Source of the DNA: a virus
Taxonomy: Duplodnaviria; Caudoviricetes
IMG/VR virus record: IMGVR_UViG_3300031753_000008
Location: 1-59,946 of that record
DNA length: 59,946 nucleotides
Strand: one strand, 5' to 3'
Both the position numbers and the translations under genes were made by a program. The notes beneath the pieces are model-generated. The model had not been told where the DNA came from. It searched no databases and saw nothing but the letters and a program-made list of their open reading frames with translations. This document shows positions 15,974 to 59,174 of this stretch, one piece after another (within the stretch, counting starts at the first letter, position 1; each line of letters starts with the position of its first letter).

Positions 15974-17689
15974 ATGACCAACATCCTGGGGATCGGCCCC
16001 AACGCCAAGCAGCAGCAGCTCGCGGGCTCGCTGCGGTTCCAGACCTCGCAAGCGGGCAGCGTCATCCCGCTCGTCTATGGCACCACCCGCATCAGCCCGA
16101 ACGTCCTCGACTACCAGGATTTCGAGGCCGTGGGCGGCAGCGCCGGAAAGGGTAAGGGCGGCGCTGCCGGCAGCGCCGGGAAGGCCGGCAAGTCGTCGCA
16201 GACGATGTACTCGGCCTCGGTCATCCTCGGCCTCTGCCAGGGGCCGATAACCCAGTTCGGGGAGGTCTGGTACAACAAGAGCGTCGGAGCACTCCTCGAC
16301 CTCTTGGGGTTGTCGACCAAAAATCTCGGCGCCGACGGGCAGCCGGCCGACCCCTATTGGGTGACCAACCACGCGCCCAATGCCATCGGCTATTCCGGCA
16401 CCGCCAACATCACGCTCGACAAGTACAACCTCGGCGCCTCGGCCTCGCTGCCGAATTTCACGTTCGAGGTCTATGGCATCGGCTCGTCGACCTGGCTCAA
16501 TGGCGCCGACGCCAACCCGGCCTTTATCGTCAGCGATTTTCTGACCAATGCGCGTTACGGCGCCGGGTTTCCGGCGGCGAACCTCGACAGCCTGACGAGC
16601 TATTCGGAGTATTGCACGGCCTTGGGGGTGGCGCTGTCGCCGTCGATCGACACCCAGATACCGGCACAGCAGCAGCTCGCCGACATCGCAAAAATCACCA
16701 ACTCGGCGATCGTGTGGTCGGGGGGCCTGCTAAAGATCATCCCCTATGGGGACATGCCGCTCAGCACGTCGTTCACGCTGATCACGGTCGCCGGGGCCGT
16801 CGCCGGCGGCGACACGATCACCGCGACCTTTACCGGCGCCGGTCTCGGCTCGCCGGTCGCGGTCTCCTACACGGCCGGCGCCGCCAACGTCAACGCCGAC
16901 ACCCTGTACATGAGCTCGTTCACCGGCGCGCTCGCCGGCCAGATCAACGCGAGCGGCCTGCAGGCGTTCGGCGTGCACGCCGGCGTGGCACCGAACGGGC
17001 TGATGATCTTCGACAATTCCGGCACCGGCACATTGGCGGTCGGGGTCACCTTTTCCGGCGCCGGCGGCGAAACCGCCACGATCAGCCCGCTCGGGACCTA
17101 TTCCTGGCAGCCCTACACGACCCCGGTCTACAGCCTCGACGACGACGATTTCATCGTCCAGGAATCGACCGTCGGCTCGTATCTCGGGGTTACCCCCGGG
17201 ACCGCGGCATTGCGCCAAGGGGCGACCCCGGTCACCGGCGGCTTTACCGACGACCCGGTGCACGTGCAGCGCTCCTCGCCGGCCGACGCCGCGAACTGGG
17301 TCGAGATCGAGTGCGTCGACCGCTCGAACTCGTACAACAAATGGCCGGTCGTCGCCTTCGATCAGGGGGCGATCGACCTCTACGGGGTCCGCAAAGACAG
17401 CAGCGTCAAGGGCAACGCGATCGTCGACGTGCAGCATGTCGGCCCGGTCGTGGCCCAGCTGGTGCTGCAGCGCAATCTCTATTACCGCAATACCTACACC
17501 TTCAATCTCGGTTGGAAATTCTGCCTCCTCGAACCGATGGATTTGGTGCAGCTGAGCGACCCCTACCTCGGCCTCGACAATCTGACGGTGCGGATCACCG
17601 GGGTGAGCGAGGACGAGGAGGGCACCTTGGCCATCACCGCGGAGGATTTTTTCGGCGTGCCGGCGGCCGTGCAATACCCGCAGGCCTGA
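15974..17689 (+). CDS. Tail tip/host-specificity protein (J-like), N-terminal part
   Basis: IPLVYGTTRISPN, LPNFTFEV, DANPA, WSGGLLKIIPYGD and LLEPMDLV. Confidence 0.85.
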   Translation: MTNILGIGPNAKQQQLAGSLRFQTSQAGSVIPLVYGTTRISPNVLDYQDFEAVGGSAGKGKGGAAGSAGKAGKSSQTMYSASVILGLCQGPITQFGEVWYNKSVGALLDLLGLSTKNLGADGQPADPYWVTNHAPNAIGYSGTANITLDKYNLGASASLPNFTFEVYGIGSSTWLNGADANPAFIVSDFLTNARYGAGFPAANLDSLTSYSEYCTALGVALSPSIDTQIPAQQQLADIAKITNSAIVWSGGLLKIIPYGDMPLSTSFTLITVAGAVAGGDTITATFTGAGLGSPVAVSYTAGAANVNADTLYMSSFTGALAGQINASGLQAFGVHAGVAPNGLMIFDNSGTGTLAVGVTFSGAGGETATISPLGTYSWQPYTTPVYSLDDDDFIVQESTVGSYLGVTPGTAALRQGATPVTGGFTDDPVHVQRSSPADAANWVEIECVDRSNSYNKWPVVAFDQGAIDLYGVRKDSSVKGNAIVDVQHVGPVVAQLVLQRNLYYRNTYTFNLGWKFCLLEPMDLVQLSDPYLGLDNLTVRITGVSEDEEGTLAITAEDFFGVPAAVQYPQA

Positions 17690-17696
17690 CCCCATA

Positions 17697-18518
17697 ATGG
17701 GTGTCAAGAGCCTCGGCGCCGGCATCGGCACGCCCGCGTTCTTCGCGCGCCAGGCGGCCGCACCCACCACCTCGGTTCCGGCCTACAATGCCGCCGCACC
17801 GAGCGTGAACCCGCCCTTTTTTGTCGAGCCGACGCAGCAATTGCTGGCAGCGCTCGGCGTCGCCGGGCCGGCATTGATCGTCGGGCTCAGCGGCGGCCCC
17901 GCCGGCGCCTACAGCCCGTTGTGGGGCGGGGCCGAGGTGTGGGCATCGCTCGACGGCACGAATTACGGCCAGCCTTTTGCCGACGACGCCTTTTTCGGGG
18001 TGTCGGCGATGGGGCTCACCACCGCGGCACTCGCGGCCTATGGCGGGGTCAACCCCGACACCGCCGACACGCTCGCGGTCGACCTCAGCCAGTCGAGGGG
18101 CACGCTCGCGAGCGTCAGCCCGACGAGCGCCGCCGCCTTTGTCAGCTTGTGCGCGGTGCAGGCGAGCGGCGGCCCAATCGAGTTTCTGGCGTTCGAGACC
18201 GCGAGCCTCGTCGGCGCCAGCGCCTACCACCTGACGACCCTCTATCGCGGTCTCTACGGGACGGATGCCGCGAGCCACGCGCTGGGCGCGCAGTTCGTCT
18301 ATCTCGGCAGCGGCGAATATTTCGCGCAGCCCTTGCCGGCGCAATACACGGGGGTGCCGTTGGAATTCAAGTTCCCGTCGTTCAATTCGACCGGCGGCGG
18401 CCTGCAATCGCTTGCCGCGGCGACGGCCTATCCCTACACCCCGGCCGGGTCCGGCAGCCTGCCGGGGCCGGGCTTCCAAACCGACGTCATCACCACCAAC
18501 ACGAATATCAGCCTGTGA
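17697..18518 (+). CDS. Tail tip protein, C-terminal part encoded as a separate ORF
   Basis: VNPPFFVEP, WGGAEVWASLDG, LYRGLYGT and FKFPSFN..GGGLQSL resemble the usual C-terminus of this tip family. Confidence 0.75.
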   Translation: MGVKSLGAGIGTPAFFARQAAAPTTSVPAYNAAAPSVNPPFFVEPTQQLLAALGVAGPALIVGLSGGPAGAYSPLWGGAEVWASLDGTNYGQPFADDAFFGVSAMGLTTAALAAYGGVNPDTADTLAVDLSQSRGTLASVSPTSAAAFVSLCAVQASGGPIEFLAFETASLVGASAYHLTTLYRGLYGTDAASHALGAQFVYLGSGEYFAQPLPAQYTGVPLEFKFPSFNSTGGGLQSLAAATAYPYTPAGSGSLPGPGFQTDVITTNTNISL

Positions 18519-18527
18519 CGTGATGAT

Positions 18528-18788
18528 GTGGCGGCGAATGCGTTCTTACGGATCTTCGAGCCCGCGGGCGGCGGGAGCTTCAACGCCATCTTACGGCCCC
18601 GGCCGCAAGATGGGGAGACTTGGCGCTTTACGCTGATTGGCGCCAATGCGGCCCAAGTCGTCGTGACGCTGACCCCCAATACCGGGCAGACGATAAACCT
18701 CGGCTCCGCCGGGATGCCGCTCACCGGGCACGGGGCGACCCGCACCCTCGTGTGGAACGCGCAGTTATCAACCTGGGTCGGCGGGTGA
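18528..18788 (+). CDS. Small beta-rich tail protein
   Basis: GTG start; ends TLVWNAQLSTWV, like fibre-attachment domains. Confidence 0.55.
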   Translation: MAANAFLRIFEPAGGGSFNAILRPRPQDGETWRFTLIGANAAQVVVTLTPNTGQTINLGSAGMPLTGHGATRTLVWNAQLSTWVGG

Positions 18789-18791
18789 CCG

Positions 18792-19676
18792 ATGATCAGG
18801 CTCCTCCTCGCCATCGTGCTGTCGCTCGCGGCGGCGGGTGCGGCATGCGCGCAACAGGTGCCATTCGACCGCACCTGGCTCTATCCCGGCGGCGCCAGCT
18901 ATGCCGCCGGGCTCGGCGACGACAACAAGGTCATCTCGGCGCTCAACGCCGGCGGCGCTCTGACCGTCACCCTGCCCTCGACGACGGCCATGGCGGCGAG
19001 CGGCTGGCAGATCGCTGTCGAGAACGACGCGGCGCATACCGTCACGGTCCAGGTCAACGGCACCGCGGGCGGCCATATCCTCTACCCGACGACATCAGGC
19101 GGGGCCTCGGCGACCTCGTTTTCGACCGCCGCCGGGAACAACGAGATCGCGGTCGTCGAATATGACGGCAACGGCAATTTCCGGATCGTCGCGGCGACCC
19201 CGGCTACCGCATTGGCGCTGGGCTTCTTCTCGGGCGGCAGCGTTCCGGCGGCGGCCGATCTCTTGGGCAGCAACGGGTCTGCTTTTGGCGGGGTGACGGT
19301 CGGCACCGGGTTGTCGCTGAGCGGGGCGTTTGGCGCGCAGACATTGTCGGCGACGGGCGGCGGGGTCGCGTGGTCGACCTCGGTCTACACGCTGACGACG
19401 ACCCCCCTCGTCCTGCCGGCGACCAACTACCTGATCGAAATCGTCAGGCAGAGCGTCGCCGCCCCGATCACGGTCGATCTCGCCGCCGCGCCGCCGGCGA
19501 ATTTCGTGCAGTGCGTAAAGGACGGCGGCAACAACTTCCAGGCCAACGCCGCCACCATCAAGACCACCGACGGCACCGCGATCGACGCCGTCGCCGGCTC
19601 GACCGGCTACGTGATGAACCAGGCCCGGCAATTCGGATGCTTCATCTTCGATGGAACGCAATGGGATATAATCTGA
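18792..19676 (+). CDS. Tail-fibre-like protein with Sec signal peptide
   Basis: MIRLLLAIVLSLAAAGAACA|QQ; TVTLPST...YDG..F and CVKDG...CFIFDGTQW domains. Confidence 0.8.
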   Translation: MIRLLLAIVLSLAAAGAACAQQVPFDRTWLYPGGASYAAGLGDDNKVISALNAGGALTVTLPSTTAMAASGWQIAVENDAAHTVTVQVNGTAGGHILYPTTSGGASATSFSTAAGNNEIAVVEYDGNGNFRIVAATPATALALGFFSGGSVPAAADLLGSNGSAFGGVTVGTGLSLSGAFGAQTLSATGGGVAWSTSVYTLTTTPLVLPATNYLIEIVRQSVAAPITVDLAAAPPANFVQCVKDGGNNFQANAATIKTTDGTAIDAVAGSTGYVMNQARQFGCFIFDGTQWDII

Positions 19677-20005
19677 GGCTCGCTTGGGCCGCGTCCGCAA
19701 TTTCGTTGCTCGCGCTCACTCCGGCCGCGCGTGCCGGCGCCGCGGCCGAGTTTCCGCCGCCGATGTGCGCGCCCGGCACCGCGACCGTGATCTGCCAGCT
19801 GATGATCGAGCGCAACAGCGTCTCCGACGAGTTGGCGCTGAGCGAGACCCGGCGCGTCGACGAGTCCAAATCGGCGCAGGCGAGTGCGGCCGCACTCGCC
19901 GATTACTGGCGGCATTACGTCATCGGCGCCGCGGCCAAGGCCGATTACTGGGGCCGCCTCTGGGACTGGCTCGCCGAGCATTTCCACCATCGCCGGGGCC
20001 GCTGA
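19661..20005 (+). CDS. Exported hypothetical protein
   Basis: MGYNLRLAWAASAISLLALTPAARA|GA; a Cys pair, then a helical region. Confidence 0.6.
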   Translation: MGYNLRLAWAASAISLLALTPAARAGAAAEFPPPMCAPGTATVICQLMIERNSVSDELALSETRRVDESKSAQASAAALADYWRHYVIGAAAKADYWGRLWDWLAEHFHHRRGR

Positions 20006-20008
20006 GCC

Positions 20009-21076
20009 ATGCGCACCGGACGGCACCTCGTAGCGGCGGCGCTGATCGGGTCGCTGATCAGCACCGCCACAACCCCGGCCGCGGCGTCCTATATGGGGAC
20101 GCCCCCGCTGCTCGTCGTCAACGGCGGCTCGGGCTTGACGACGGCGACGGCACACGCGGTCTTGACCGGCGAAGGAACCTCGGCCTTTGGCCAGGTCGGC
20201 CCCGGCGGGGCCGGCACCTTGCTCGCCGGTGTGGCGAGCGCCGACCCGACCTTCACCTCGACCCCGACCCTGGGGGCCAACGGCGGCACCGGCGGCACCT
20301 TGACGCTCGAGGGCTCGACGAGCGGCTCCGGCGTCATCCAGGTCGCCGCCGCGGCCGGCGCCGGCATCGTCTTCCAGCTGCCCTCGGCAAACGGCTCCTC
20401 CGGCAACGCGCTCACCACCAACGGCGCCGGCATCACGAGCTGGAGCCCGGTCGGCACGCTGACCTCGGTCACCTGCGGCACCGGGCTCAGCGGCGGCACG
20501 ATCACCACGACCGGCACCTGCTCGATTACCGCCCCGGTTACGGTAGCGCTCGGCGGCACCGGCTCGATATCGGCCTCGGGGACGGCGCTCGACAACATCA
20601 CCGGGTTTTCCGGGACCGGCCTCGTCAACCGCACCGGCGCCGGCACCTATTCGTTCATGGCGACCAACGCCGTCGCGTTTACCGGGGGCACGATCGACGG
20701 CGTCACGATCGGCGGCACCACGCCGGCGGCGGCCCACTTCACGACCCTGAGCACGAGCGGGATCACGACCTTTGGCTCGGGCGAGGTCGGGCCGGTCCGG
20801 GTCGTCACCGCGTCCGGAGCGGTGACGATGGCGACCACCGACAACACGATCGAGGTCGACAAGACGACCGGGGCCGCGACCACCGTAAACCTGGTGTCGT
20901 CGCCGACCCCGGGCACCCGGCTCTGCGTCAAGGATGGGAAAGGCGACGCATCCGCCAACAACATCACGCTCTCGCCCGCCGCGGGGAATATCGACGGCGG
21001 CGCCACTTTCATCATGAACCAGAATTACCAGAGCACCTGCATCCAGTACGACGGAACGAAGTGGATCATCTCGTAG
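20009..21076 (+). CDS. Tail-fibre-like protein with Sec signal peptide
   Basis: MRTGRHLVAAALIGSLISTATTPAAA|; VVNGGSG, VALGGTG, GTGLSGGTIT and LTTNGAG fibre repeats. Confidence 0.8.
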   Translation: MRTGRHLVAAALIGSLISTATTPAAASYMGTPPLLVVNGGSGLTTATAHAVLTGEGTSAFGQVGPGGAGTLLAGVASADPTFTSTPTLGANGGTGGTLTLEGSTSGSGVIQVAAAAGAGIVFQLPSANGSSGNALTTNGAGITSWSPVGTLTSVTCGTGLSGGTITTTGTCSITAPVTVALGGTGSISASGTALDNITGFSGTGLVNRTGAGTYSFMATNAVAFTGGTIDGVTIGGTTPAAAHFTTLSTSGITTFGSGEVGPVRVVTASGAVTMATTDNTIEVDKTTGAATTVNLVSSPTPGTRLCVKDGKGDASANNITLSPAAGNIDGGATFIMNQNYQSTCIQYDGTKWIIS

Positions 21077-21094
21077 TGCCTGCGGCATGAGCTT

Positions 21095-23383
21095 ATGCGC
21101 TATGTATTCGCGGCACTGGTGGCGCTCGTCGCTGGCGCACAAGCGGCGCGCGCCGAATTCGACGGCATCGTAAGGGTCCCCAACAACGCGGCGCTCGCCG
21201 CCCTCAAATCGACGCAGGCGGCATGGGTCGAGCGGCTCGGCTTTACGACGATCGGGGACGCCGAAAAGGTCCTCTACGCCTCGAGCAATTCGGCCTGCTC
21301 GCTCAATGCCGGCGCCGGCGACAACGGCTCGCAGGTCGCCAGCGCCGACAGCAAGTGCTGGATCGCCACCTTCCCCGCAGTGGGCGCCTCTGTGGGCGAA
21401 TGGGGGGCCGTCGATCTCGGCAGCGGCAACGTCACCGGCACCGACAGCTCGACCGCCCTCGACGCCGCGGCGGCGTGGTGTGGAAGGGTGACGGGCGGCG
21501 GGCGCCTCTTAATCGGCAACCACCGCTACGCGCACGACTCGGCCGCCAACTGGGTGGTGCCGCAGGGCTGCACGGTCGCCAGCTCGGGGCCGGTCGCCGG
21601 CGATCCCGCGACCAACCCCGTCAACTGGGCGTCGACGACGGGTGGTGCGATCTTGATAAACCCGACCAAGACGGTTTCGTTGTCGGGGAACCTCGACGGC
21701 GTTCTTGTGGCGCCCTATGGGATGGGGCCTGCGGCCTCGGGGCAAGCCTACTATCAGCAGGTTTTGACCTTTGCTGGGACCGGCATAACGATCGGCGCCG
21801 ATCATGCGGTCATTACACACAGCGGCGTCGTCGGGTTTGCGCAAGGTATTTCGTCGACCGGATTTGCGCGCCTGATAATGGACGACGTGCTGATCGACGA
21901 CACTGCCGGCCTGTTGTTGGCGAACAGTTATGACGTCGCCCACATCTCAAAGGTCCACGGCTGGTCTTGGACCGGCGGCAACGTCAACAACATCCCCTTC
22001 GACGTAGAGGCGATCACCGGCGTCGCGAATAACGGCTCTGGGTTAGTAAGGCTGACGGTCACCTCTACCACGGACCTCGCCACCGGTAATAACGTCTCCA
22101 TCGAGGGAGTCGGGGGCGCGGTCGGCGCCAATGGCGACACATGGACGATCACCGTCATCGACTCGACTCACGTCGATCTTCAAGGATCGGCGTTCGCCGG
22201 CCTAACGCATACCTGCTCATGGGGCAGCACGGATAACGCGATATCCTGCACTACAATTCAGGGGATCAATCCTGGAGGTGCTGTTAGCGGGACGAATATT
22301 CAGTCCGGGACAACCGTCATGGCGGTTGATCCGATCAATAATCGGGTCTGGCTGAGCAACTACCCGACCGCAGCCGGCAGTAGCGTTACCCTCACCTTTG
22401 CGTTGGGAACCTACACCTCGGGCGGCGATTTGGTGCTTAATGGCACGCGACGCTCAGGCGCGTTTGTCAAGGTTACGGGGGGCACCCAAAACGATTTTCA
22501 CGACATGTTCGAGTATGGCTATAAGAAGGGTTATTACGTTTCGACGAATTCATTGTGGAATTTCTTTCACGACGCGTCATGCGATGCCTTGATCGAAGGC
22601 AATTTCGTCACTACTGACAGCTGCATTTACTTAGACGCCAATGCGCATGAAAACGAATTCATCGGAGGCCAAATAGGCGGGTCGACGATCGGGGTCGACG
22701 AGCAAACCACCGGGGGCAATACCGTAAATCAGGTCATCGGCCTTAATTTCCGAAACCAGGCGAGCGATTTGTCAGTCATTGTTGCCGGGGTCGGCACCGA
22801 CTTTTTGCGACTGGACGGGATCGCGACCAACCTTGGCACTGGCTACGTCGCGGGATATTTCGGGCAGAACTTCACGCTCGATGGGTTGGGCGCAGTCGCC
22901 GGATTGTTGTTGGTCGAGGAGCAGGACGGCACGGCTGGCGTTGCCGTTCCTGCGGCGACGCTCTCGGGAACTTGGACGCCGACGGTCTTGCTGAACGGCG
23001 TGCCGAGTTCTGGCATGACCTTCTCGACCTCGCCGACCGGCCATTTTCGGATCGACCAATACGGCTACATGATGGTCGATTTCGGGTTTCAGTTGTCCGC
23101 TCTGGGCAGTGGGACCGGCAACCTGCAGCTCGGCAACATGCCATTGAACTGCGTGCCGGGAATCGACGATTTCGGGCTGGCGCCGGTTTTCCATTTCGGC
23201 AATGGCACGACGCCTACCACGGGGCTTACTGGTCCGGTGTGGGGGTCAGCCACCGGCAATGCAAACTATTTTGCGTTCACCGAGTCGGACACAGCGATCA
23301 ATGCCAATTCTCAGCCTGTGACCAATGCGAACATCACCAGCTCTCTTCAAACTGGTGGCACCTTCGCCTGCCGCACCCGATAA
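21095..23383 (+). CDS. Tailspike/pectate-lyase-like beta-helix protein with Sec signal peptide
   Basis: MRYVFAALVALVAGAQAARA|EF; SVGEWGA...TDSSTALDAA beta-helix entry; GTWTPT fibre-tip domain. Confidence 0.8.
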   Translation: MRYVFAALVALVAGAQAARAEFDGIVRVPNNAALAALKSTQAAWVERLGFTTIGDAEKVLYASSNSACSLNAGAGDNGSQVASADSKCWIATFPAVGASVGEWGAVDLGSGNVTGTDSSTALDAAAAWCGRVTGGGRLLIGNHRYAHDSAANWVVPQGCTVASSGPVAGDPATNPVNWASTTGGAILINPTKTVSLSGNLDGVLVAPYGMGPAASGQAYYQQVLTFAGTGITIGADHAVITHSGVVGFAQGISSTGFARLIMDDVLIDDTAGLLLANSYDVAHISKVHGWSWTGGNVNNIPFDVEAITGVANNGSGLVRLTVTSTTDLATGNNVSIEGVGGAVGANGDTWTITVIDSTHVDLQGSAFAGLTHTCSWGSTDNAISCTTIQGINPGGAVSGTNIQSGTTVMAVDPINNRVWLSNYPTAAGSSVTLTFALGTYTSGGDLVLNGTRRSGAFVKVTGGTQNDFHDMFEYGYKKGYYVSTNSLWNFFHDASCDALIEGNFVTTDSCIYLDANAHENEFIGGQIGGSTIGVDEQTTGGNTVNQVIGLNFRNQASDLSVIVAGVGTDFLRLDGIATNLGTGYVAGYFGQNFTLDGLGAVAGLLLVEEQDGTAGVAVPAATLSGTWTPTVLLNGVPSSGMTFSTSPTGHFRIDQYGYMMVDFGFQLSALGSGTGNLQLGNMPLNCVPGIDDFGLAPVFHFGNGTTPTTGLTGPVWGSATGNANYFAFTESDTAINANSQPVTNANITSSLQTGGTFACRTR

Positions 23384-23393
23384 AAGGTAGCGC

Positions 23394-26300
23394 ATGAAAC
23401 ATCGTCTACTGGCCGGCGTGCTAGCCTCGGGTCATGCCCTGAGTTTCGCTGCGGCGCTGGCGCTGGGGCTGCTGCCGTTCATCGTCCCGCTGTCGGCGCG
23501 AGCCGCGCTGCAAAACAACAGCTATCCGTCGACCGGCGCGGTGCTGTCCTGCCAAGGGCGGCCGTGGATCGACGTGATGTGCTATAGCGCCGATCCGACC
23601 GATACCAGCGACTCGACCACGGCCTTTACTACGGCGATCGCCGACGCGCTCACCAACGACGTGCCAATCCACATCCCGGCCGGCAAGTACAAGATCAGCA
23701 GCACGCTGACAATTGATACCTCGGGTTTCGGCGCCGCCGGGGTTCGCCTGATCGCCGACAACGCGACGCTCGATGGCGCCGCCGTATCGAGCGGCCCGGT
23801 GTTGCTGGTCCAGCGCTCCGGTGGGACGACCGGATCGCCGGCGGTCGACCAAAATTTCACAATCGAAGGATCTCTGTCGGTCCTATCGAGCGCAGCCGCC
23901 TACGCGGTCGCGATCGGCAAAGCCGACTTCTCCGACAAGTTTCAAGGGCTGCGTATCGAGCACCTGACCGCGGCCAACGCATCGAGCGCCGCTGGCGCCG
24001 GCGGCATCAAGGTCAACTATGTCGTCGGCGCCCGGCTGTGGCTCGGCGGCACCACCGCGGGCGGCTCGGCGGCGGCGGCCGCGGTCGCGGTCGAACAGGC
24101 TCAGGATTCGCAGATCGCCGGCGCCGGCGCGGCGAGCGGGGCGAGTGCTGCCTCGCTCCTCGTTGAGAACGGCATCTCGACCGGCAACACCTTTTCCGGC
24201 TTCAACTACGGCACCACGTCGAACACCTGCCTGTCGATCACCGCCGCCGGGGCCGCGCTGAACGCGTTTGTCGCCCCCAATTTCGGCTGCACTACCGCGG
24301 TCAACGCCACCGCCTCGGGCGCCGGCAACGTCCTGGTGCCGCCGGTTTTTGCCGGGGCCAACCGCGGCCCGATCTCGGGCGGCATCACGATCGTCGGCCG
24401 CGGCGCCTTGAGCCGCTACGTCGCCCCGGCCGCGAGCACCTATACCGCACTGTGCAGCGACGACGGCACGATGTTCAGCTCGGCCGCCGCAACCGGCTCG
24501 GGGGCGGGAACCTGGGCGGCGTCGAGCTTGCCGGTCACCCTGCCCAACCCCGCGACCTGCGGCGCCGGCTATTCGATCGGGTTCGCCACCGACGCGTCAA
24601 AGGCGGTCGTCCTGACTGCGTCGGCGGGCGCAATTCTCGCCGGCACCAGGTCGCTGGCGGCAATGACCCTCGGCCCCGGCAATTACGAATTTGTCGTATT
24701 GCGCTCCGACGGCACCAATTTCCGGGTGACGCAGGGCTCTTCCGGCAGCCTCGTCTACAATGGGGCCGCTGCCCCCGGCATCCCGTCGCGCTACGAATTT
24801 CCGGGCGGCCCCGGCTACCAGGCGACGCAGGGCGACAATGCCGGGGTCTTGTCGAGCTCGCTCACCTCCTCGGGTCTCGCGGTGACCCTGCCGTCGACGA
24901 CCTCGGTCGCGGCCGGCTGGACGATCGGGCTCGCGGCCGACGCGATGCCGCTCGCGGTCCAGGTCAACGGCACCGCCGGCGGCCATATCCTGCTGCCGGC
25001 GGGAACCTCGCTATCCACCGCACACGTGCCGATCGACTACATGGCCTATGTCCAGTTCGACGGCGCCAATTTCCGCTTCCTGCCGCTGTGGAGCACGCCG
25101 GCGATCGGCAACGACGTGCGCATCTTTGGGGCCGTGGGCGACGGCTCGACCAACGACACGGCCCCGATCCAGACCGCCTGGGACCTCGGCCCGGTCTACC
25201 TGCCGCCCGGCAACTGGCACGTCACCGACGAGCTCGCCTGCAATGGCGGCAACGCGATGAGCGGGGCCGGCAATTACGTGTCGGTTTTGACGGTGGGGAG
25301 CGCCGGCGGCAACGATTTCAACATGAACGCCAACGGGGTAGTGCAGACCGGCGCCATCGTCGGCGGCCCGTGCTCGCTGACCAATTTCGAGATCGGCTTT
25401 TACCAGCCCGATACGGGCGGCATGACGCTCGCGAACATCATCCATTACCCCAAAGCCCTCGATGGCGACTTTGTCCATTACGGCACAATCGACAAGGTCC
25501 GCATCAATGCCGCGTGGGAGTGCTTTGGCGCGGCGGGCGGAATGAGCGGCACCCCCGGCGGGACCCATCTCGGCACGATCGATTGCAGCTCGTTCAACAC
25601 CGGGCTCTACCTCCAGGGCAACGATGCCTTTTTCAGTGTCGACACCTGGGACCAGGAAACCGGCGGTCTCACCGCCAACCAGGGGGCGGTCTACGAGGCG
25701 GCCGGGGAAGCCGGCGCGGCGCAGTGCATCCATCTCGCCGGCGACGTGCAGGGGCCGGCCTTTGGCAAGGCCATGTGCTTTGCCCAGGGTGTGACCCTCG
25801 ACAACGGCACCGCCTACAACATCCCGACCTCGTTCAATACCCTCGACCTCGACGGCGACGGCGCGCTGCTCAAGGTCAATGGCGGCGGCCAGGGCAACGC
25901 GGTGCGCGTCGGAACCCTCTATTCGACCAAGAGTGCCGCCGACACGCTCGGGACACTGAATATCGACGGCGCCCTGACCTCGGTCGAGATCAGCAACTGC
26001 CGGGTCTCGGCGGCGCAGACCTCGGCCCCCGACATCCTGGTCAATGGCGGCAGCACGATCCTCAATGGCTGCTACTATTTCTATTCGTCGCCGAACGAGA
26101 CCCCGGTCGTGGTCACCGGCGGCCTGCTCAAATTCGCCAATGACCGGTTTGTCCTGCCGACCCCCGCGACCGCGACAATGATGAGCGTCGCCGGCGGCGC
26201 CAGCGGCACTCTCGAGCTCGTCGGCAACAATTTCTCCGAGCCCAACGTCGCCCGCGCCAGCGGCAACCCGCTGATCCACGTCAACACGGCGCTGTCGGCG

Positions 26301-27095
26301 CCGGCGCGCCTCATCATGACCGGCAACACCTTTCTTGGCGCCAATGTCGTCGGCAACATCCTCGAGATCGACCAGGACAACCCGGGCAACAACGTCCAGG
26401 GCAACTTTCTGAACGGCTGGCAGGTCGATCTCGGGTTCAATACGTCGGTTGGCTATTACGACTTCCCCGACGTACCGCTGCCGGTTACGAGCACGCCGCA
26501 ATTCGCGACCAACGGCGATTTCGCACCGACCGGCGGTACTACCGACGCCACCTTTACCGGCAACATTTTGGGCCCGGCCCTGACCGTCGTCAGCGGGCTC
26601 TCCGGCACGATCGCGCACGGCGAAGAGGTCACCTGCGGCGGCTGCGCCCCGAACACCGTGATCCAGACCGGATCGGGGTTCAACTGGACGGTGTTGCCGG
26701 CGCAGACCGTCGCGAACACCGCGATGACCGTCGTCACCCCGGCGGTCGTCGGCAGCTATTTCCGGCGCGGCGACTTTGTCGATTTTCACCTGCGCGACAC
26801 CTTCAACACCAATGCCTATACGACCGCCTCGGGGAATTTCGAGTTGCAGACCAACATGCCCGGCGCCCAGCCGTTCGAGGACCCGACCGGGATCCCGCTG
26901 TCGATCGGTTTTATCCAGAACATCACCTTCCTCTCGGGCCAAATCCCGTCCTCCGCCTATATCAACGGCCTCGGTCTCATCGTGCTCGGCTACTACCAGT
27001 CGGCCGCGATCCCGCTGCCGTTCAACACGAGCAACATTCTGCCGAGCACGGCGAACGTGTCGGTGAATGTCGCCGGCCGCTATCGGATCAGGTGA
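23394..27095 (+). CDS. Large tailspike-like protein (two beta-helix entries) with Sec signal peptide
   Basis: N-terminal ...PFIVPLSARA|; ADPTDTSDSTTAF...IPAGKY and DVRIFGAVGDGSTNDTAPIQ...VYLPPG; terminal GRYRI. Confidence 0.85.
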   Translation: MKHRLLAGVLASGHALSFAAALALGLLPFIVPLSARAALQNNSYPSTGAVLSCQGRPWIDVMCYSADPTDTSDSTTAFTTAIADALTNDVPIHIPAGKYKISSTLTIDTSGFGAAGVRLIADNATLDGAAVSSGPVLLVQRSGGTTGSPAVDQNFTIEGSLSVLSSAAAYAVAIGKADFSDKFQGLRIEHLTAANASSAAGAGGIKVNYVVGARLWLGGTTAGGSAAAAAVAVEQAQDSQIAGAGAASGASAASLLVENGISTGNTFSGFNYGTTSNTCLSITAAGAALNAFVAPNFGCTTAVNATASGAGNVLVPPVFAGANRGPISGGITIVGRGALSRYVAPAASTYTALCSDDGTMFSSAAATGSGAGTWAASSLPVTLPNPATCGAGYSIGFATDASKAVVLTASAGAILAGTRSLAAMTLGPGNYEFVVLRSDGTNFRVTQGSSGSLVYNGAAAPGIPSRYEFPGGPGYQATQGDNAGVLSSSLTSSGLAVTLPSTTSVAAGWTIGLAADAMPLAVQVNGTAGGHILLPAGTSLSTAHVPIDYMAYVQFDGANFRFLPLWSTPAIGNDVRIFGAVGDGSTNDTAPIQTAWDLGPVYLPPGNWHVTDELACNGGNAMSGAGNYVSVLTVGSAGGNDFNMNANGVVQTGAIVGGPCSLTNFEIGFYQPDTGGMTLANIIHYPKALDGDFVHYGTIDKVRINAAWECFGAAGGMSGTPGGTHLGTIDCSSFNTGLYLQGNDAFFSVDTWDQETGGLTANQGAVYEAAGEAGAAQCIHLAGDVQGPAFGKAMCFAQGVTLDNGTAYNIPTSFNTLDLDGDGALLKVNGGGQGNAVRVGTLYSTKSAADTLGTLNIDGALTSVEISNCRVSAAQTSAPDILVNGGSTILNGCYYFYSSPNETPVVVTGGLLKFANDRFVLPTPATATMMSVAGGASGTLELVGNNFSEPNVARASGNPLIHVNTALSAPARLIMTGNTFLGANVVGNILEIDQDNPGNNVQGNFLNGWQVDLGFNTSVGYYDFPDVPLPVTSTPQFATNGDFAPTGGTTDATFTGNILGPALTVVSGLSGTIAHGEEVTCGGCAPNTVIQTGSGFNWTVLPAQTVANTAMTVVTPAVVGSYFRRGDFVDFHLRDTFNTNAYTTASGNFELQTNMPGAQPFEDPTGIPLSIGFIQNITFLSGQIPSSAYINGLGLIVLGYYQSAAIPLPFNTSNILPSTANVSVNVAGRYRIR

Positions 27096-27985: not shown

Positions 27986-28010
27986 GGGCTCCGAAAGTCG
28001 GAGCCCTTTT
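27986..28010 (+). terminator. Intrinsic terminator
   Basis: gggctccga-aag-tcggagccc then TTTT. Confidence 0.85.
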
Positions 28011-29502: not shown

Positions 29503-29889
29503 ATGAAGTTCCCCCGCCTCTTTCTCGCCGCAACGCTGTTCGCCGGCGCTGCGATGCCGGCCTTCGCCGGCTCGCTCGTCTCCGGTGACCTCCACATCGT
29601 CGTCACGCCTCCGGCCCTGGGCCTGGTGCTGCCCAACGGGACGCTGCAATGCCCGGTTCCGGGCGGCACGGTCGTGGCCACGGTGTCGACCTTCGGCGGC
29701 GACGGCACTGCCGTTACCTATTCGATGGGTGCGGGCTCGACCGGGACCGACGACCTCACCGACTTCGTGATCGGCCCGGCCACGGGCGTGGTCTCGGTGG
29801 CGGCGGCTGGCCTCACGACCTCGTCGCCCATGTGCGCGCCGGGTGCCGGGACGCACATCGTGAACGGCATCACAGCGTCGCAGAATTAA
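29503..29889 (+). CDS. Exported cadherin/Ig-like single-domain protein
   Basis: AGGAG RBS; MKFPRLFLAATLFAGAAMPAFA|; GTVVATVST...VTYS...FVIGPATGVVSV; two Cys. Confidence 0.7.
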   Translation: MKFPRLFLAATLFAGAAMPAFAGSLVSGDLHIVVTPPALGLVLPNGTLQCPVPGGTVVATVSTFGGDGTAVTYSMGAGSTGTDDLTDFVIGPATGVVSVAAAGLTTSSPMCAPGAGTHIVNGITASQN

Positions 29890-29893
29890 GCCA

Positions 29894-32866
29894 ATGCGCA
29901 CCCTGGCTGCCGGCGCCCTGCTGACCGCGGGGTTCGCTGTTCAGTCGCCGCCAGCGCCTGCGACCGGCGATCTGACGATCACCGTCACGGGGCCGCCCGC
30001 CAGCGGCGCCGGAACGCTGTCGCTCGCCATCGGCCCGGTCGGCGGCCCCTACACCGCCGTGCCGATACAGATGGACGAGGTTGGCACCTACGGATTCAAC
30101 GGCGAGCCTGCCAGCAACGGTGTCCGCACGGCGAATTTCTCGACCCGCGTGCCCTCGGTCCCGGTCGGCGGCACCTTCCAGGTGCAGATTTCCTACAATG
30201 GCGTCCCGATCGCGACCCGGACGGAGCAGAATGCCGGCGCGGCCGGAACCGACGTGCCCTTCACGTTTGGCGCGGCGTTCCAGCGCGGCACGATCCCGAG
30301 CTACAGCTACACGCCCGGCACTGGCCTGCCGTTCTCCGCGGCGGCCTCCGCGCACGATATCAAAGTCGTGTTCGGTTCGTCCACGATCCCGGTGCGCGAC
30401 GGCAACGGGGTCACGATCGGCTCCGGCGTGTGGGTGTGCGATGCCAACGCGCTCGCGGCACTCGGCGCCTACACCAAGAACGGCGGTTACAGGATCACCA
30501 GCAACGGCGCGCTGATGACCAGTTACGCCGTCGACGGCCCCTGCGTCGACCGGGCCAACGGCTCCCCGGCGGGCGCGCAGCTCTGGGCGCACTTTCCGGC
30601 GATCCAGCTCTGGCAGACCGCGCCCAACTCAGGCGTGCTCGGCGAGGTGCGGGTCGAAGACCCGTGGGTGGCGAACGGCCCTTGGCTCAACGTCGCGGCC
30701 AATGCCACGGCCGTGTACACCGGCGACATGGCGCTCTATGACGGGGCGGCGCTGATCGCCCAGCGCTCGACCGGCCTCGGCAGCGCCGAAGGGCCGTTCG
30801 CGATCCAGCCTGCCGCAGTGACGACCGGGATCAATGGGACTTGCGGCGCCGGAACCATCTCGACCAATTTCCAACTGCCGACCACGCTCCAAGACGGTGA
30901 GCCCGTGCTGTACAACGGGCCTGCTGCGGGCGGCACCGCGATCGGCGGCATGACGCCCGGCCGTGTCTACTTTTATGGCTCCTCCGTGGTCGGCAGCGGC
31001 AAGGGCAATCTTGTCCTCAGCCCCGCCAGCCAGAACGGCGGTGCCAACCCGCTCACCTGCCCCAACATCACCAGTCCTGGTGTAGGACCGCAGAATTTCA
31101 CGCCCGTCGCCTCAGCCAACTATCGCGCCGTGGCGATAATCGGCCCAGACGAGGTTGGCAGCCCGCTCTGGCTTGCCGCGGCCAACCGTGCCCCGGCGGT
31201 CCATCTCAACCCGGCCCTGACCACGGCCGAGATTTCCTACCTCGAAGTGGCCGGGGTCATCCCGTCCTACTACACCAACCTTGCGGTTCTCCCGCTCTAT
31301 AAGGCGCAGGGCAACAAAGGCGGTCCTGTCTATCGGCCGAACTCGACCGGGCTTGGCGATGTCGACGATGGCGCCGGCGGCGACCATGACGGGCTCGGCC
31401 CGCTCTCCGAATGGGAAGCCCGTGCCCTGCTCAGCGAAAATTCCGCGGCGTGGGACGGCGTGCGCGCCACCGCTCTGAGCGTCATGAACATTCCGACGCT
31501 GATGACCCTCAACGAGGCGACCGGCTACCTGCCCGCCCTCAACAACAAGACCTATCCCCAGCTCGGGGCCGGCCTGCCCAACGTGTTCTGGACCTATACT
31601 GGCAATGGGGTCTCCGGCGGCATGGAAATCCCGCCGACCGCGACCGGCGATACCTGCCCATCGTGCTTTCTCGGCGGGATGATGGCCGGTGTCGATGGGA
31701 TGCATTGGGAGGATTACGGGCAGTGGCTGATGGCGCTGCTGACCGGCGACCGCAGCATGATCGACGTGCAGTATTTCGCGGCTAATGCACAGCTCATGAA
31801 TATGAACGTCGACACGTTTGGCGTCGGCTCCCGCAACTTCGCGATGAACGGCACCCCCTACGTCGCTCGCATCTCATTTACGGACAGTATGCGGCGGACG
31901 GCGTGGGAGCTGCGCGAGTTCATGCGCGGATCGGTCATTGGCTCCGACAGCAACCCGGAGAAGCAATACGAATTCGACGTGCTGGCCGGCGATGTGGATA
32001 ATTTCTACACCGTGACGCATCACTACGCCGACCCCGGCATGGCTGCCATCGGCGCGACGGAAGGGATTTCGGACTTCCTGGCCAATTTCATGCACTACTA
32101 CGAGGAGACTTCATATTGTGCACAGAAGGGCTTGATCCGCTACACCAGCCCGATCACCGGAGGCAGCACGGCGGCCGAGTGCGACTACATGACCGTGTGG
32201 CCCGAACTCCTATGGGCATCGTCGTGGCCGACCTATTGGGCAGTGACGGAGCAGGTCACGGACACCTTCCCGTCGGCGTTCATGGCGGCGCCGGACCAGC
32301 TCCCGCACGCCAACGGCCCGAGCGAGATATTCACCCACTCAAATGCCGGCTTCCTCAGCGTCGATGCGACGGGTCTGTTCACGGCTAATGGCGGGTTATT
32401 TCCACAACTACAAAATGGCGACGCGGGGGTGATTTGGGACCTGAATCCCAACAACGACTTCGGGCCGACGACCAAGTATTTTACTTACAACGTCACCCAG
32501 CCGGCGGAAATGTTCCGGCTCTCGACGACCTGCACCGCGGCGACGGCCCTCAACCCCTGTCCAAGCCCGACCATAACCCCGTTCGTCCCGGCCCATGGCC
32601 CCTACTCCGCCGGTACGAATTTCAGCATGGCGTTCCAGTTTGCCTACGATCCCCCGAGCGGGCCGGCGGCGAACGGGCAGGGTGGCAACAGCAGCTCGGA
32701 CTATGACGTGTGGGCACGGTCGGGCATGGCGGCCGCCCTAAACAATGGCGCGACCACGCCTTCCCTTGCGACTGCGTTCGCCAATGCCGACGCGCGGTTC
32801 GTCTACACCCCGCGCTGGGGTGACGCAGAGCGCTGGGCGATCGACCCGACCGTCAGGGTGCACTGA
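29894..32866 (+). CDS. Large exported protein, possible polysaccharide lyase (beta sandwich plus alpha barrel)
   Basis: N-terminal signal-like segment; GGDHDGLGPLSEWEA and RRTAWELRE resemble PcRGLX/YetA-like barrel proteins (recalled, not searched). Confidence 0.55.
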   Translation: MRTLAAGALLTAGFAVQSPPAPATGDLTITVTGPPASGAGTLSLAIGPVGGPYTAVPIQMDEVGTYGFNGEPASNGVRTANFSTRVPSVPVGGTFQVQISYNGVPIATRTEQNAGAAGTDVPFTFGAAFQRGTIPSYSYTPGTGLPFSAAASAHDIKVVFGSSTIPVRDGNGVTIGSGVWVCDANALAALGAYTKNGGYRITSNGALMTSYAVDGPCVDRANGSPAGAQLWAHFPAIQLWQTAPNSGVLGEVRVEDPWVANGPWLNVAANATAVYTGDMALYDGAALIAQRSTGLGSAEGPFAIQPAAVTTGINGTCGAGTISTNFQLPTTLQDGEPVLYNGPAAGGTAIGGMTPGRVYFYGSSVVGSGKGNLVLSPASQNGGANPLTCPNITSPGVGPQNFTPVASANYRAVAIIGPDEVGSPLWLAAANRAPAVHLNPALTTAEISYLEVAGVIPSYYTNLAVLPLYKAQGNKGGPVYRPNSTGLGDVDDGAGGDHDGLGPLSEWEARALLSENSAAWDGVRATALSVMNIPTLMTLNEATGYLPALNNKTYPQLGAGLPNVFWTYTGNGVSGGMEIPPTATGDTCPSCFLGGMMAGVDGMHWEDYGQWLMALLTGDRSMIDVQYFAANAQLMNMNVDTFGVGSRNFAMNGTPYVARISFTDSMRRTAWELREFMRGSVIGSDSNPEKQYEFDVLAGDVDNFYTVTHHYADPGMAAIGATEGISDFLANFMHYYEETSYCAQKGLIRYTSPITGGSTAAECDYMTVWPELLWASSWPTYWAVTEQVTDTFPSAFMAAPDQLPHANGPSEIFTHSNAGFLSVDATGLFTANGGLFPQLQNGDAGVIWDLNPNNDFGPTTKYFTYNVTQPAEMFRLSTTCTAATALNPCPSPTITPFVPAHGPYSAGTNFSMAFQFAYDPPSGPAANGQGGNSSSDYDVWARSGMAAALNNGATTPSLATAFANADARFVYTPRWGDAERWAIDPTVRVH

Positions 32867-32901: not shown

Positions 32902-33105
32902 ATGCCGCCACGCAAGCTGACTGCCATTGATCCGGAGCGAGCGCGCTACAAGATCGTGCGCCGCGACAACTTTGTCGACGTGCCGGGTCTGATCATGGCG
33001 GCCAACGTCGACACCGGGCTGTGCCTATTGAGGGATGCCAATGGCGTCTCGCAAGAGCACAAATTCGAACCCGATGGGTTCGCGATCGTGGCGGCCCGTC
33101 GATGA
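32902..33105 (+). CDS. Hypothetical protein
   Basis: GGAG RBS; 67 aa; coupled to the lysin. Confidence 0.65.
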   Translation: MPPRKLTAIDPERARYKIVRRDNFVDVPGLIMAANVDTGLCLLRDANGVSQEHKFEPDGFAIVAARR

Positions 33106-33794
33106 CCGCCCTCGCAGTGACCGCGATGCCCGGCGCCCAGTGCTTCGACACCGACACCAAGCTCGACCTGGTGGCGGCACGGTCTCTCGCCCTCCGGGGC
33201 TATGCCGCGGCGATCCGCTATGTCAGCCGCGCCGTGCCGAACGGCCCCGGCGACATCGGCGCCGAGGAGGCCGCAACGATCATGACGGCGGGTCTGGGGC
33301 TGATGCTGGTGCAGCATTGCCCGCCGGCCTACTGGACGCCGTCGTCCGGGCTCGGCACGGCCTATGGCGGTGCGGCGGCGCAGAACGCCGCCGCGGTCGG
33401 CTACCCGGCGGGCGCGACATTGGCGGTCGACCTCGAAAACATGCGGCCCGGCTGCGGCAATCCGGCGATCGTCGCCTATGTCAACTCGTGGTCGCGCGCG
33501 GTCATTGCCGCCGGTTACGTGCCGTGCCTCTATTACAGCGCCGACTGCCCGCTCTCCCCCGAAGAGCTCTATCTCGATCTGGTCGTGACGCTCTATTGGC
33601 GCGCGCTGAGCCGCGACACGCCCCAGGTCGCGGTGTGCGGGCCCTGCATCCAGCAATTCGCGCAAATGGGCCAGGTCGCGGGGATCGACATCGACCGCGA
33701 CGTGGTCATGGCCGACGCGTTCGGGCGCTTGCCGAGCTGGATGACCTCGCCGCCGGCGGTAGGGCCGATCGCGAACCCGGCCGGCGCATTATAA
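33102..33794 (+). CDS. DUF1906 (Rv2525c-like) peptidoglycan hydrolase, probable endolysin
   Basis: CFDT, AAIRYVS, AGLGLMLVQ, GYPAGATLAVDLE, GYVPCLY and DIDRD. Confidence 0.8.
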   Translation: MTALAVTAMPGAQCFDTDTKLDLVAARSLALRGYAAAIRYVSRAVPNGPGDIGAEEAATIMTAGLGLMLVQHCPPAYWTPSSGLGTAYGGAAAQNAAAVGYPAGATLAVDLENMRPGCGNPAIVAYVNSWSRAVIAAGYVPCLYYSADCPLSPEELYLDLVVTLYWRALSRDTPQVAVCGPCIQQFAQMGQVAGIDIDRDVVMADAFGRLPSWMTSPPAVGPIANPAGAL

Positions 33795-35886: not shown

Positions 35887-35917
35887 GCGCCGTAATCCCA
35901 AAATCGAGGCCGCGAGC

Positions 35918-36304
35918 ATGCGCCTGACCACCCCGTTCGACCCGATCGAGCCGGGCGAGACCGACAATTTCGCCTTTGACTTCACTGCCGACATGGGCGC
36001 GGCGACGCTTGCCGGCACCACCTGGACCTGCGCGCTGGCACCCTACCAGACCGCGAGCGACCCCGCGGCCGGCTCACGCATCATCGCGACCTCGACGGCG
36101 ACGACGATCGCGGTGCGTGACCCGCTCACCGGCAATCTCGCCGTGAAGACCGGGTTCTTTTCGGTGGCGCTGGTCGGCGGCATGCCAACTTCGGCGATCG
36201 GCGCCACCTATGTCCTGAGCGCCACGGTCACGACCTCGGACGGCCGCACCCTGGTGCTGAGCTCGACCGTGCTGTGCTCGCCCAATTCGGCGTCGCCGGG
36301 CTGA
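35918..36304 (+). CDS. Fibre adaptor/connector-like protein
   Basis: DPIEPGETDNFAFDF...TVTTSDGRTL pattern. Confidence 0.65.
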   Translation: MRLTTPFDPIEPGETDNFAFDFTADMGAATLAGTTWTCALAPYQTASDPAAGSRIIATSTATTIAVRDPLTGNLAVKTGFFSVALVGGMPTSAIGATYVLSATVTTSDGRTLVLSSTVLCSPNSASPG

Positions 36305-58910: not shown

Positions 58911-59174
58911 GTGTTCGGGTTTCGCCGGCGCTGGCGGCCGCGGCTGCGGGTGACCGCGCTCAACCACGACTTCGCCGCCGCCCAGCCGCATTACGCGATC
59001 GTCGCCGACCATGAACTGACCCCGGCGCAGATGCACCTCGTGTCGCGCGCCTGGCACGCGCTGGCGCCCGGAGGATCGGCGCTGATCATCGACGGCAACG
59101 CCGAGATCCTGTCGCATCGCCTCGAAGCCGCCATTGCTGAGCTGCAGGGCGGCACCGAATTGCTGGACTCCTGA
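58911..59174 (+). CDS. Hypothetical protein coupled to portal
   Basis: Its TGA overlaps the portal ATG. Confidence 0.55.
   Translation: MFGFRRRWRPRLRVTALNHDFAAAQPHYAIVADHELTPAQMHLVSRAWHALAPGGSALIIDGNAEILSHRLEAAIAELQGGTELLDS

Follow-up and report, generated by a model that had tools for sequence, protein, structure and literature searches.

Two neighbouring genes of a soil phage genome, IMG/VR record IMGVR_UViG_3300031753_000008 (59,946 nt, analysed over its whole length and called the window below), encode fibre-like proteins of 294 and 355 aa, each with a predicted Sec signal peptide at its N-terminus and a conserved pair of Cys residues in a shared C-terminal domain. The best explanation of the pair, to which we assign a probability of roughly 0.75, is an intrachain disulfide between adjacent strands of a domain of the phage CBA120 TSP4 XD1 and T4 gp9 type, in Sec-exported fibre-like proteins encoded within the tail operon of a temperate siphophage. 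On this reading the conserved pair forms a disulfide, and the proteins probably fold outside the cytoplasm. The elements concerned are as follows.

18792-19676, + strand: 294-aa fibre-region protein, predicted to be exported; signal-peptide-like residues 1-21 and a C-terminal XD1/gp9-type domain
about 19374-19673: C-terminal XD1/gp9-type domain of the 294-aa protein (about residues 195-294)
19512-19514 and 19638-19640, + strand: codons of Cys241 and Cys283, the pair of the 294-aa protein
20009-21076, + strand: 355-aa fibre protein, predicted to be exported; a signal-peptide-like segment at residues 1-27, then fibre repeats, with an XD1/gp9-type domain at the C-terminus
20474-20521, + strand: Cys156 and Cys171, which make up a short-range pair within one of the fibre repeats (VTCGTGLSGGTITTTGTCSI)
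20771-21073: C-terminal XD1/gp9-type domain of the 355-aa protein (residues 255-355)
20924-20926 and 21038-21040, + strand: codons of Cys306 and Cys344, equal to domain positions 52 and 90 and to columns 47 and 85 of the hidden Markov model (HMM)

The C-terminal domain and the coupling of its two Cys

The 294-aa protein ends in ...NFVQCVKDGGNN...MNQARQFGCFIFDGTQWDII and the 355-aa protein in ...TRLCVKDGKGD...MNQNYQSTCIQYDGTKWIIS. In a BLASTP comparison the C-terminal parts were 35% identical across 88 aa (E 2e-11) and their two Cys coincided, and in alignment A2 Cys241/Cys283 stand in register with Cys306/Cys344. Both results confirm the original observation, made from the sequence alone, that the Cys occupy equivalent positions in the two C-termini, here within domains of ~95 aa. 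The motifs VTCGTG and GTCSI that had been noticed in a fibre repeat of the longer protein are also present, as VTCGTGLSGGTITTTGTCSI; the 355-aa protein accordingly has Cys156, Cys171, Cys306 and Cys344, and the 294-aa protein has Cys241, Cys283 and a further Cys19 within the signal peptide. Searches of Pfam and PHROGs with the two proteins returned nothing above sub-threshold noise.

An AlphaFold2 model of residues 255-355 of the 355-aa protein, built with 66 homolog rows, has nine strands (predicted local distance difference test score, pLDDT, 93.5; predicted template modelling score, pTM, 0.85). Cys52 (domain numbering) lies in strand 5 (50-55) and Cys90 in strand 8 (88-93), both mid-strand. 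In the full-length AlphaFold2 model of the 294-aa protein the C-terminal domain has pLDDT values of 81-96, and Cys241 and Cys283 fall in strands (238-244 and 281-286) equivalent to those of Cys52 and Cys90; residues 1-18 are helical, and the N-terminal half has pLDDT values of 37-62. Foldseek matched the domain to the N-terminal part of CBA120 TSP4 (1-250/1-335; 7rfv/7rej), with template modelling (TM) scores of 0.76-0.77 and E values of about 3e-5 to 4e-5; other matches were a Klebsiella phage baseplate protein, T4 gp9 (1qex, E 0.015), T4 gp10, CpaA and StcE. A profile of 62 domain sequences (A3) searched against PDB sequences found the proximal subunit of a long tail fibre (9x3r, E 1.1e-6) and residues 100-169 of TSP4 (E 2.4e-6), a stretch that falls within XD1, which the accessible part of the TSP4 study describes as a 9-stranded mixed sandwich covering residues 80-178 (PMC8825819). 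As modelled, both C-terminal domains are ~95-residue, 9-strand beta-sandwiches of the CBA120 TSP4 XD1 / T4 gp9 type.

The family is large, with 5106 cluster representatives found by profile search at E<=1e-3, and Foldseek against BFVD gave no fewer than 294 predicted viral proteins at E<=1e-3, with fibres, collagen-repeat proteins and pectate-lyase proteins numerous among them. The nearest Pfam family is PF25692 (Phage_depo_C), matched by 22 of the 62 A3 relatives at E<=0.01, and PF07880 (T4_gp9_10_N) was matched by 3 of the 62. PF25692 itself matched neither the whole window proteins (E<=0.1) nor the 20771-21073 domain alone (E<=0.01), and by these profile comparisons the window domains appear to be neighbours, not members, of that family.

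Coupling between the two Cys was examined in a pooled set of 231 domain copies from 194 proteins, drawn with overlaps from a word search with the 355-aa protein's domain (74), a word search with the 294-aa protein's domain (2) and the best 150 of a profile search. The two columns were occupied by C/C in 25 domains, by C/other in three and by other/C in none, with about three C/C expected from the column frequencies; the 25/231 is not to be taken as a frequency, because the collecting profile was built from the two window domains, both with the pair, and favours Cys-pair matches in its ranking. By mutual information with average product correction (MI-APC) the Cys column pair ranked 1 of 4095 in this set, and 2 after rows having Cys at either column were left out. 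When viral contigs were added (301 unique domains) it again ranked 1, falling to 11 once every Cys-containing row was removed, at which point the pair 50-90 ranked 2. The other top co-varying pairs (82-87, 80-89, 31-37 and 12-16) are sensible hairpin contacts, and the co-variation map therefore looks physical.

In Cys-less members the first position is mostly V, I, T or L (160/231) and the second mostly T, E, G, N, K, D or R, with R-D and E-K combinations over-represented, preferences that would fit two neighbouring solvent-facing side chains; the natural combination seen most often is V and T. An earlier expectation that cytoplasmic versions of the domain carry aliphatic residues at these sites was borne out, for Cys-less members, at the first position but not at the second, which is polar and apparently surface-exposed. 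The topology of TSP4 XD1, as given in the accessible part of its description, allows antiparallel pairing of strand 8 with strand 5 (PMC8825819). We infer that the simplest layout is a sheet order of 1-3-5-8-7 with strand 8 antiparallel to strand 5, which would place Cys52 and Cys90 side by side on adjacent strands. The location on neighbouring strands that had been proposed for the pair is in this way supported indirectly, by the mid-strand placement of both Cys in modelled strands 5 and 8, the co-variation rank of 1/4095 and the compatible topology of TSP4 XD1.

Signal peptides and Cys parity

The signal-peptide-like residues 1-21 of the 294-aa protein read MIRLLLAIVLSLAAAGAACA/QQ. The hydrophobic window at the N-terminus of both proteins has a mean Kyte-Doolittle value of 2.6-2.9, and the layout of a Sec signal is present in the sequence, with a K/R n-region, a hydrophobic core of about 11+ residues and a small-residue c-region. 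A heuristic scan together with reading of the sequences found seven proteins in the window in which a positively charged N-terminus is followed by a hydrophobic core free of charges and then by an AXA-like end. G+C content at third codon positions (GC3) is 0.83-1.0 in frame through the hydrophobic N-termini of the open reading frames (ORFs) starting at 18792, 19661 and 20009, and through the whole of the small ORF that lies between the two fibre genes; the N-terminal segments are therefore coding and not start-codon artefacts. Cys19 of the 294-aa protein sits within the signal peptide (18792-18854; ...AGAACA/QQ) and would be removed by cleavage after ACA. A lipoprotein reading of this Cys (GAAC lipobox, with an unusual -3 residue) is possible, and is thought less likely than ACA cleavage.

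The pair and the signal go together among relatives. Reading by eye recognised signal-peptide-like N-termini in 23 of the 25 Cys-pair proteins (18 by the automatic rule) and a clearly cytoplasmic one in none; the two that could not be judged are P0004, whose start is a conserved MGAY located after the signal in relatives, and P0103, a fragment. When one domain was counted per protein over 190 homologs, all 22 classifiable Cys-pair proteins were signal-peptide-like, compared with 42 of the 168 lacking the pair (Fisher p 2.4e-12, uncorrected for relatedness), so that the check originally suggested, whether the pair co-occurs with signal peptides across homologs, gave a favourable answer. None of three proteins with the first Cys only has a signal peptide. 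In trees built without the two Cys columns, monophyly of the 24 Cys-pair domains was rejected by the approximately unbiased (AU) test (p 0.031), and more than one gain or loss is therefore likely.

The number of Cys follows the signal as well. Signal-bearing domains contain either no Cys (33) or two (32) and never one (65 domains), and the signal-less domains contain none (132), one (26) or two (5). In mature whole proteins with any Cys, the count is even in 56/59 signal-bearing versus 36/82 signal-less homologs (two of the three odd signal-bearing cases are artefacts of the crude signal cut), and Cys density per 100 residues is 1.16 versus 0.29. A bias towards even numbers of Cys is a recognised mark of disulfide-forming exported proteins, according to the accessible text of PMC2823432. 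In this phage, all seven signal-bearing proteins have even counts (2, 2, 4, 10, 16, 2 and 10), and of the 14 signal-less proteins with Cys, three are even and 11 odd. The suggestion that the Cys pair gives independent support to periplasmic folding gains strength from this parity, in the signal-bearing homologs and in the 7/7 proteins here.

Other Cys pairs occur in the same domain, mostly in signal-bearing lineages. An alternative pair at columns 23/51 is found in nine signal-bearing proteins and another, at columns 53/81, in one viral contig; their co-variation ranks among the 4095 column pairs are 2 and 19 with all rows, and 14 and 15 without Cys rows. The fibre parts of signal-bearing homologs (e.g., P0009 and P0066) repeatedly contain short-range pairs comparable to Cys156/Cys171, with a spacing of 10-17. 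In an independent set of viral contigs, 18 of 74 distinct ORFs are signal-peptide-like, and Cys is present in 18/18 of these versus 31/56 of the others. A giant signal-less protein of 3238 aa (P0077) was matched by the profile at 23 stretches; 22 copies could be aligned, and about half of them have a single Cys.

Genome, gene neighbourhood and relatives

The window is a complete temperate siphophage genome. CheckV gave a completeness of 100% for the virus record, and a portal gene is split across its ends (5-736 and 59174-59944, matching positions 145-318 and 2-198 of the Pfam Phage_portal profile at the start and end, respectively), so the record represents a circularly permuted or terminally redundant genome. 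Genes were identified for the prohead protease, capsid, tape measure and tail assembly, and for an integrase, ERF/YqaJ recombination proteins, an S24 repressor and TerL, and the assignment to a temperate siphophage follows from this gene set. The other features of the tail and fibre region are listed below.

15974-17689, + strand: Phage-tail_3, gpJ-like protein (central tail fibre / host specificity), by family match
17697-18518, + strand: Rcc01698_C protein (central tail fibre / host specificity), by family match
18528-18788, + strand: 86-aa ORF without signal peptide and without Cys; possibly a distant stand-alone copy of the domain, by a weak match
19661-20005, + strand: small ORF of 114 aa with a signal-peptide-like N-terminus and the pair Cys36/Cys45
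21095-23383, + strand: 762-aa protein with 10 Cys that starts with a signal-peptide-like segment (...AQAARA/EF)
23394-27095, + strand: 1233-aa protein that starts with a signal-peptide-like segment; 16 Cys in its mature part
27986-28006, + strand: first strong intrinsic-terminator-like hairpin 3' of the tail genes (9-bp stem and T-run)
29503-29889, + strand: 128-aa signal-peptide-like protein with 2 Cys
29894-32866, + strand: 990-aa signal-peptide-like protein with 10 Cys
33021-33794: glycoside-hydrolase-like lysis candidate

The order 3' of the central fibre genes is the 86-aa ORF followed by the genes for the 294-, 114-, 355-, 762- and 1233-aa proteins, and farther on those for the 128- and 990-aa proteins. 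Gaps or overlaps between genes from 18528 to 27095 are at most 18 nt. Because of this tight packing, and because no strong terminator-like hairpin precedes 27986, the signal-bearing genes from 18792 to 27095 are likely to be co-transcribed with the tail genes. A pectate-lyase-like domain (PF12708) was found at residues 575-652 of the 1233-aa protein; the 762-aa protein had no match in Pfam or PHROGs, and family searches gave none for the 128- and 990-aa proteins. G+C content drops to 0.598 in the 2-kb window 22001-24000, compared with about 0.66-0.70 in the neighbouring ones; the dip takes in the 762-aa gene over its 3' half and continues into the beginning of the 1233-aa gene, and could point to a module acquired recently. 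Elsewhere (35750-35900), the end of an ORF at 33817-35886 overlaps the start of another at 35750-36304 on a short tandem repeat, read as LRSLGKRRV twice in one frame and as GCCGRSANA repeats in the other, and the ORF at 35750-36304 weakly resembles Gp77, a fibre-tail adaptor of podophages.

The 86-aa ORF matched the domain weakly (hmmsearch E 0.002, hhalign probability 16%). Further Cys-less copies were sought, with hhalign probabilities of 11% for residues ~27-143 of the 294-aa protein, where the model is of low confidence, and 1% for the part of the 1233-aa protein at nt 24300-25100. The small ORF (19661-20005) overlaps the end of the 294-aa gene by 16 nt and stops 4 nt before the 355-aa gene; its product has a Cys loop and then a helical C-terminus rich in Trp. 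A word search found no homolog of it, and its residues 29-79 match the N-terminus of a protein in the homolog set (P0185, E 1e-7) in which they are fused to the Cys-pair domain. This fusion hints that the small protein may work together with the XD1-type domain.

A word search with the C-terminal domain of the 294-aa protein found a single relative (P0076), which retains both signal and pair and joins an N-terminus like that of the 355-aa protein (...ANA/AYMGTPPLLV) to a domain of the 294-aa type. Within the viral-contig set, which was assembled by a pattern-based search, this particular pair is confined to two proteins of one contig (L018, with a 94%-identical domain), and that contig retains both genes, both signals and both Cys pairs. 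Phages in this set tend to carry copies that are all signal-bearing or all signal-less. A Mu-like prophage (L002) has three signal-bearing fibre-like genes between a tail fibre plus DUF4376 assembly gene and an endolysin; these are consecutive genes of 125, 293-304 and 645 aa (L002:9024-12222), and the 125-aa protein consists of little beyond a signal and one domain with the alternative 23/51 Cys pair. In L009 a depolymerase-like gene and a GH108 lysin come after a signal-bearing homolog. A Sphingomonas genome (L011:8990-10294) also has a homolog that starts with a signal-peptide-like segment; it lies in a chromosomal region, not an obvious prophage, near a Wza-like polysaccharide export gene and a GDP-mannose 4,6-dehydratase gene. 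Matches to the domain in cultured phages were limited to Halorubrum tailed virus 27 and Agrobacterium phage Atu_ph07, both weak, and no proteomics-backed example was found among the cultured phages searched for the domain.

Alternative readings, implications and known systems

Under the preferred reading, the late operon following the central tail-fibre genes would encode fibre-like and depolymerase-like proteins with Sec-type signal peptides, and the 294- and 355-aa proteins would be exported by way of their predicted signals. After export, oxidation would join Cys241 to Cys283 and Cys306 to Cys344 in an intrachain disulfide, stapling the sheet. The pair would be an optional stabiliser, used where exported proteins carry the domain (signal-less versions have V, I or T and then T or a polar residue), and it would be one of at least three stapling solutions arising where the domain sits on exported proteins. 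Gene position, operon packing, fibre repeats, the depolymerase domain and the assembly-type domain point to virion appendages, and the signals to the periplasm. The exported proteins may be either virion appendages added after export or proteins acting on the envelope or on polysaccharide.

Several observations weigh against an intrachain disulfide in exported proteins. The signal-peptide calls came from a crude hydrophobicity rule and from reading by eye, made with knowledge of the Cys state. The pair is absent from 42 of the 64 signal-bearing homologs, and export therefore does not require it. Its association with signals is largely phylogenetic: nine state changes were counted, with only three independent pairs on supported branches, and a sign test on these three (in the same direction or tied) was underpowered and not significant (p 0.25-0.5). 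The alternative pair at columns 23/51 occurs also in four proteins called signal-less, and parity is weaker in the viral contigs, where 13-14 of 18 are even and three signal-bearing domains have a single Cys. Co-variation, moreover, cannot tell intrachain from interchain contacts.

This last point leaves room for an interchain disulfide that joins the protomers of a fibre trimer and locks it covalently, for which the co-variation data have no power of discrimination. Related XD1 domains of TSP4 pack about a threefold axis (PMC8825819), and disulfide-bearing trimeric fibre tips exist in the MAT fibres of Bdellovibrio (PMC10769870), in both cases according to the accessible parts of the reports. 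We nevertheless think such a bond improbable, since both Cys are mid-strand in a confidently modelled monomer, the pairs 50-90 and 52-90 with the hairpins 82-87 and 80-89 fit a strand order of 5-8-7 in one sheet, and the positions in Cys-less members are variable and polar, as on a solvent face, and not conserved as at an interface. It is also conceivable that the two Cys are not bonded, being free thiols or part of a metal site, and that the pair is an inherited lineage marker of a clade whose signals are incidental to it. The few independent transitions (nine changes, three supported), the non-significant sign test and the bias of the collecting profile toward Cys speak for such a marker. 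Set against this, a lone Cys of the two was seen in just three proteins, all of them signal-less, exactly one Cys was seen in 0/65 signal-bearing domains, the same columns co-vary strongly without Cys rows, other signal-bearing lineages have other Cys pairs that also fall at contact-like column pairs, and monophyly of the Cys-pair domains was rejected (p 0.031). Two thiols alone also make a poor metal site, and the marker explanation seems to us very unlikely.

The remaining alternative would be that the N-termini are mis-called starts or virion-anchoring helices, with assembly in the cytoplasm and oxidation of the Cys only after lysis. The genes do lie at the usual location of side fibres or tailspikes, in a tightly spaced tail operon whose first strong terminator-like hairpin comes only at 27986; the type of domain is known as a module of tailspike assembly or of baseplates; and several homologs have an internal Met after the hydrophobic segment (YMGTPP here, and MGAY in P0002/3/4/8). 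Furthermore, no description of tail fibres or tailspikes of tailed phages with signal peptides was found in the literature covered (PMC6102473 and PMC3556154 included), which did not extend to subscription journals and supplements. We still consider cytoplasmic assembly a poor prospect. GC3 marks the N-terminal segments as coding, n-, h- and c-region layouts with AXA-like ends occur in seven proteins of this phage, and the segments are conserved in L018 and P0076 (AYMGTPPLLV after ...ANA). Cys enrichment and parity also track the segment over 190 homologs, and are lacking in signal-less fibres, which would be equally extracellular after lysis.

Textbook accounts have the particles of tailed phages built wholly in the cytoplasm. 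The Cys pair matters here as an independent reporter of where a protein folds. Together, the pair, the signals and the Cys parity indicate that ~11.7 kb of the 60 kb, a fifth of the genome and at the receptor-binding location, encodes proteins that mature outside the cytoplasm, and the same design is seen in about one-quarter to one-third of the sampled domain proteins (64/190 pooled, 18/74 in viral contigs). A tentative idea, which we regard as rather unlikely, is that this phage and a large set of similar soil and aquatic phages pre-fabricate their host-recognition appendages in the periplasm: these would be Sec-exported, disulfide-stapled and trimerised, and would dock on cytoplasm-built particles once the holin opens the inner membrane, possibly via the conserved C-terminal XD1-type domain and the signal-less 86-aa protein (18528-18788). 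If true, periplasmic pre-fabrication would be a two-compartment assembly route for tailed phages, and if the exported proteins do join virions the route would be one that has not been described. If they are not in virions, phages would commonly export fibre-like or depolymerase-like proteins for other ends, such as receptor masking or remodelling of surface polysaccharide. Fibres and depolymerases of this kind would need oxidising expression conditions for folding, and the recurrent stapling sites (52-90, 28-56 and 58-86) offer natural positions at which to stabilise a widespread domain.

Among known systems, the side tail fibres and tailspikes of lambda-like siphophages occupy the same place, after the gpJ-like gene and before the lysis genes, and share fibre repeats and a pectate-lyase-like depolymerase domain with the proteins described here. 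Side fibres and tailspikes of that type are not known to have signal peptides and are assembled in the cytoplasm, in contrast to the seven signal-peptide-like N-termini and paired Cys of this phage. The XD1 domain of TSP4 (PDB 7RFV, 7REJ and 7RFO) and T4 gp9 are of the same fold class and likewise belong to phage fibre or spike proteins. The alignment has Thr in TSP4 (about Thr123 and Thr162) at both positions that carry the Cys pair in the window proteins, and TSP4, unlike the latter, is not known to have a signal peptide. XD1 lies near the N-terminus of TSP4, in a part that assembles the spike complex on the baseplate, as the accessible text reports (PMC8825819), whereas the window domains are at the extreme C-terminus. 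A C-terminal position is what they have in common with Phage_depo_C (PF25692), the beta-sandwich at the C-terminus of phage depolymerases, which 22/62 of their relatives match and they do not. The MAT fibres of Bdellovibrio bacteriovorus are tail-fibre-like trimers with signal peptides, and crystal structures of their C-terminal tips show disulfides, in the accessible part of the report (PMC10769870). As far as that text goes, the likeness in signal peptides and tip disulfides (predicted in the present case) is functional only. [quoted passage not shown]

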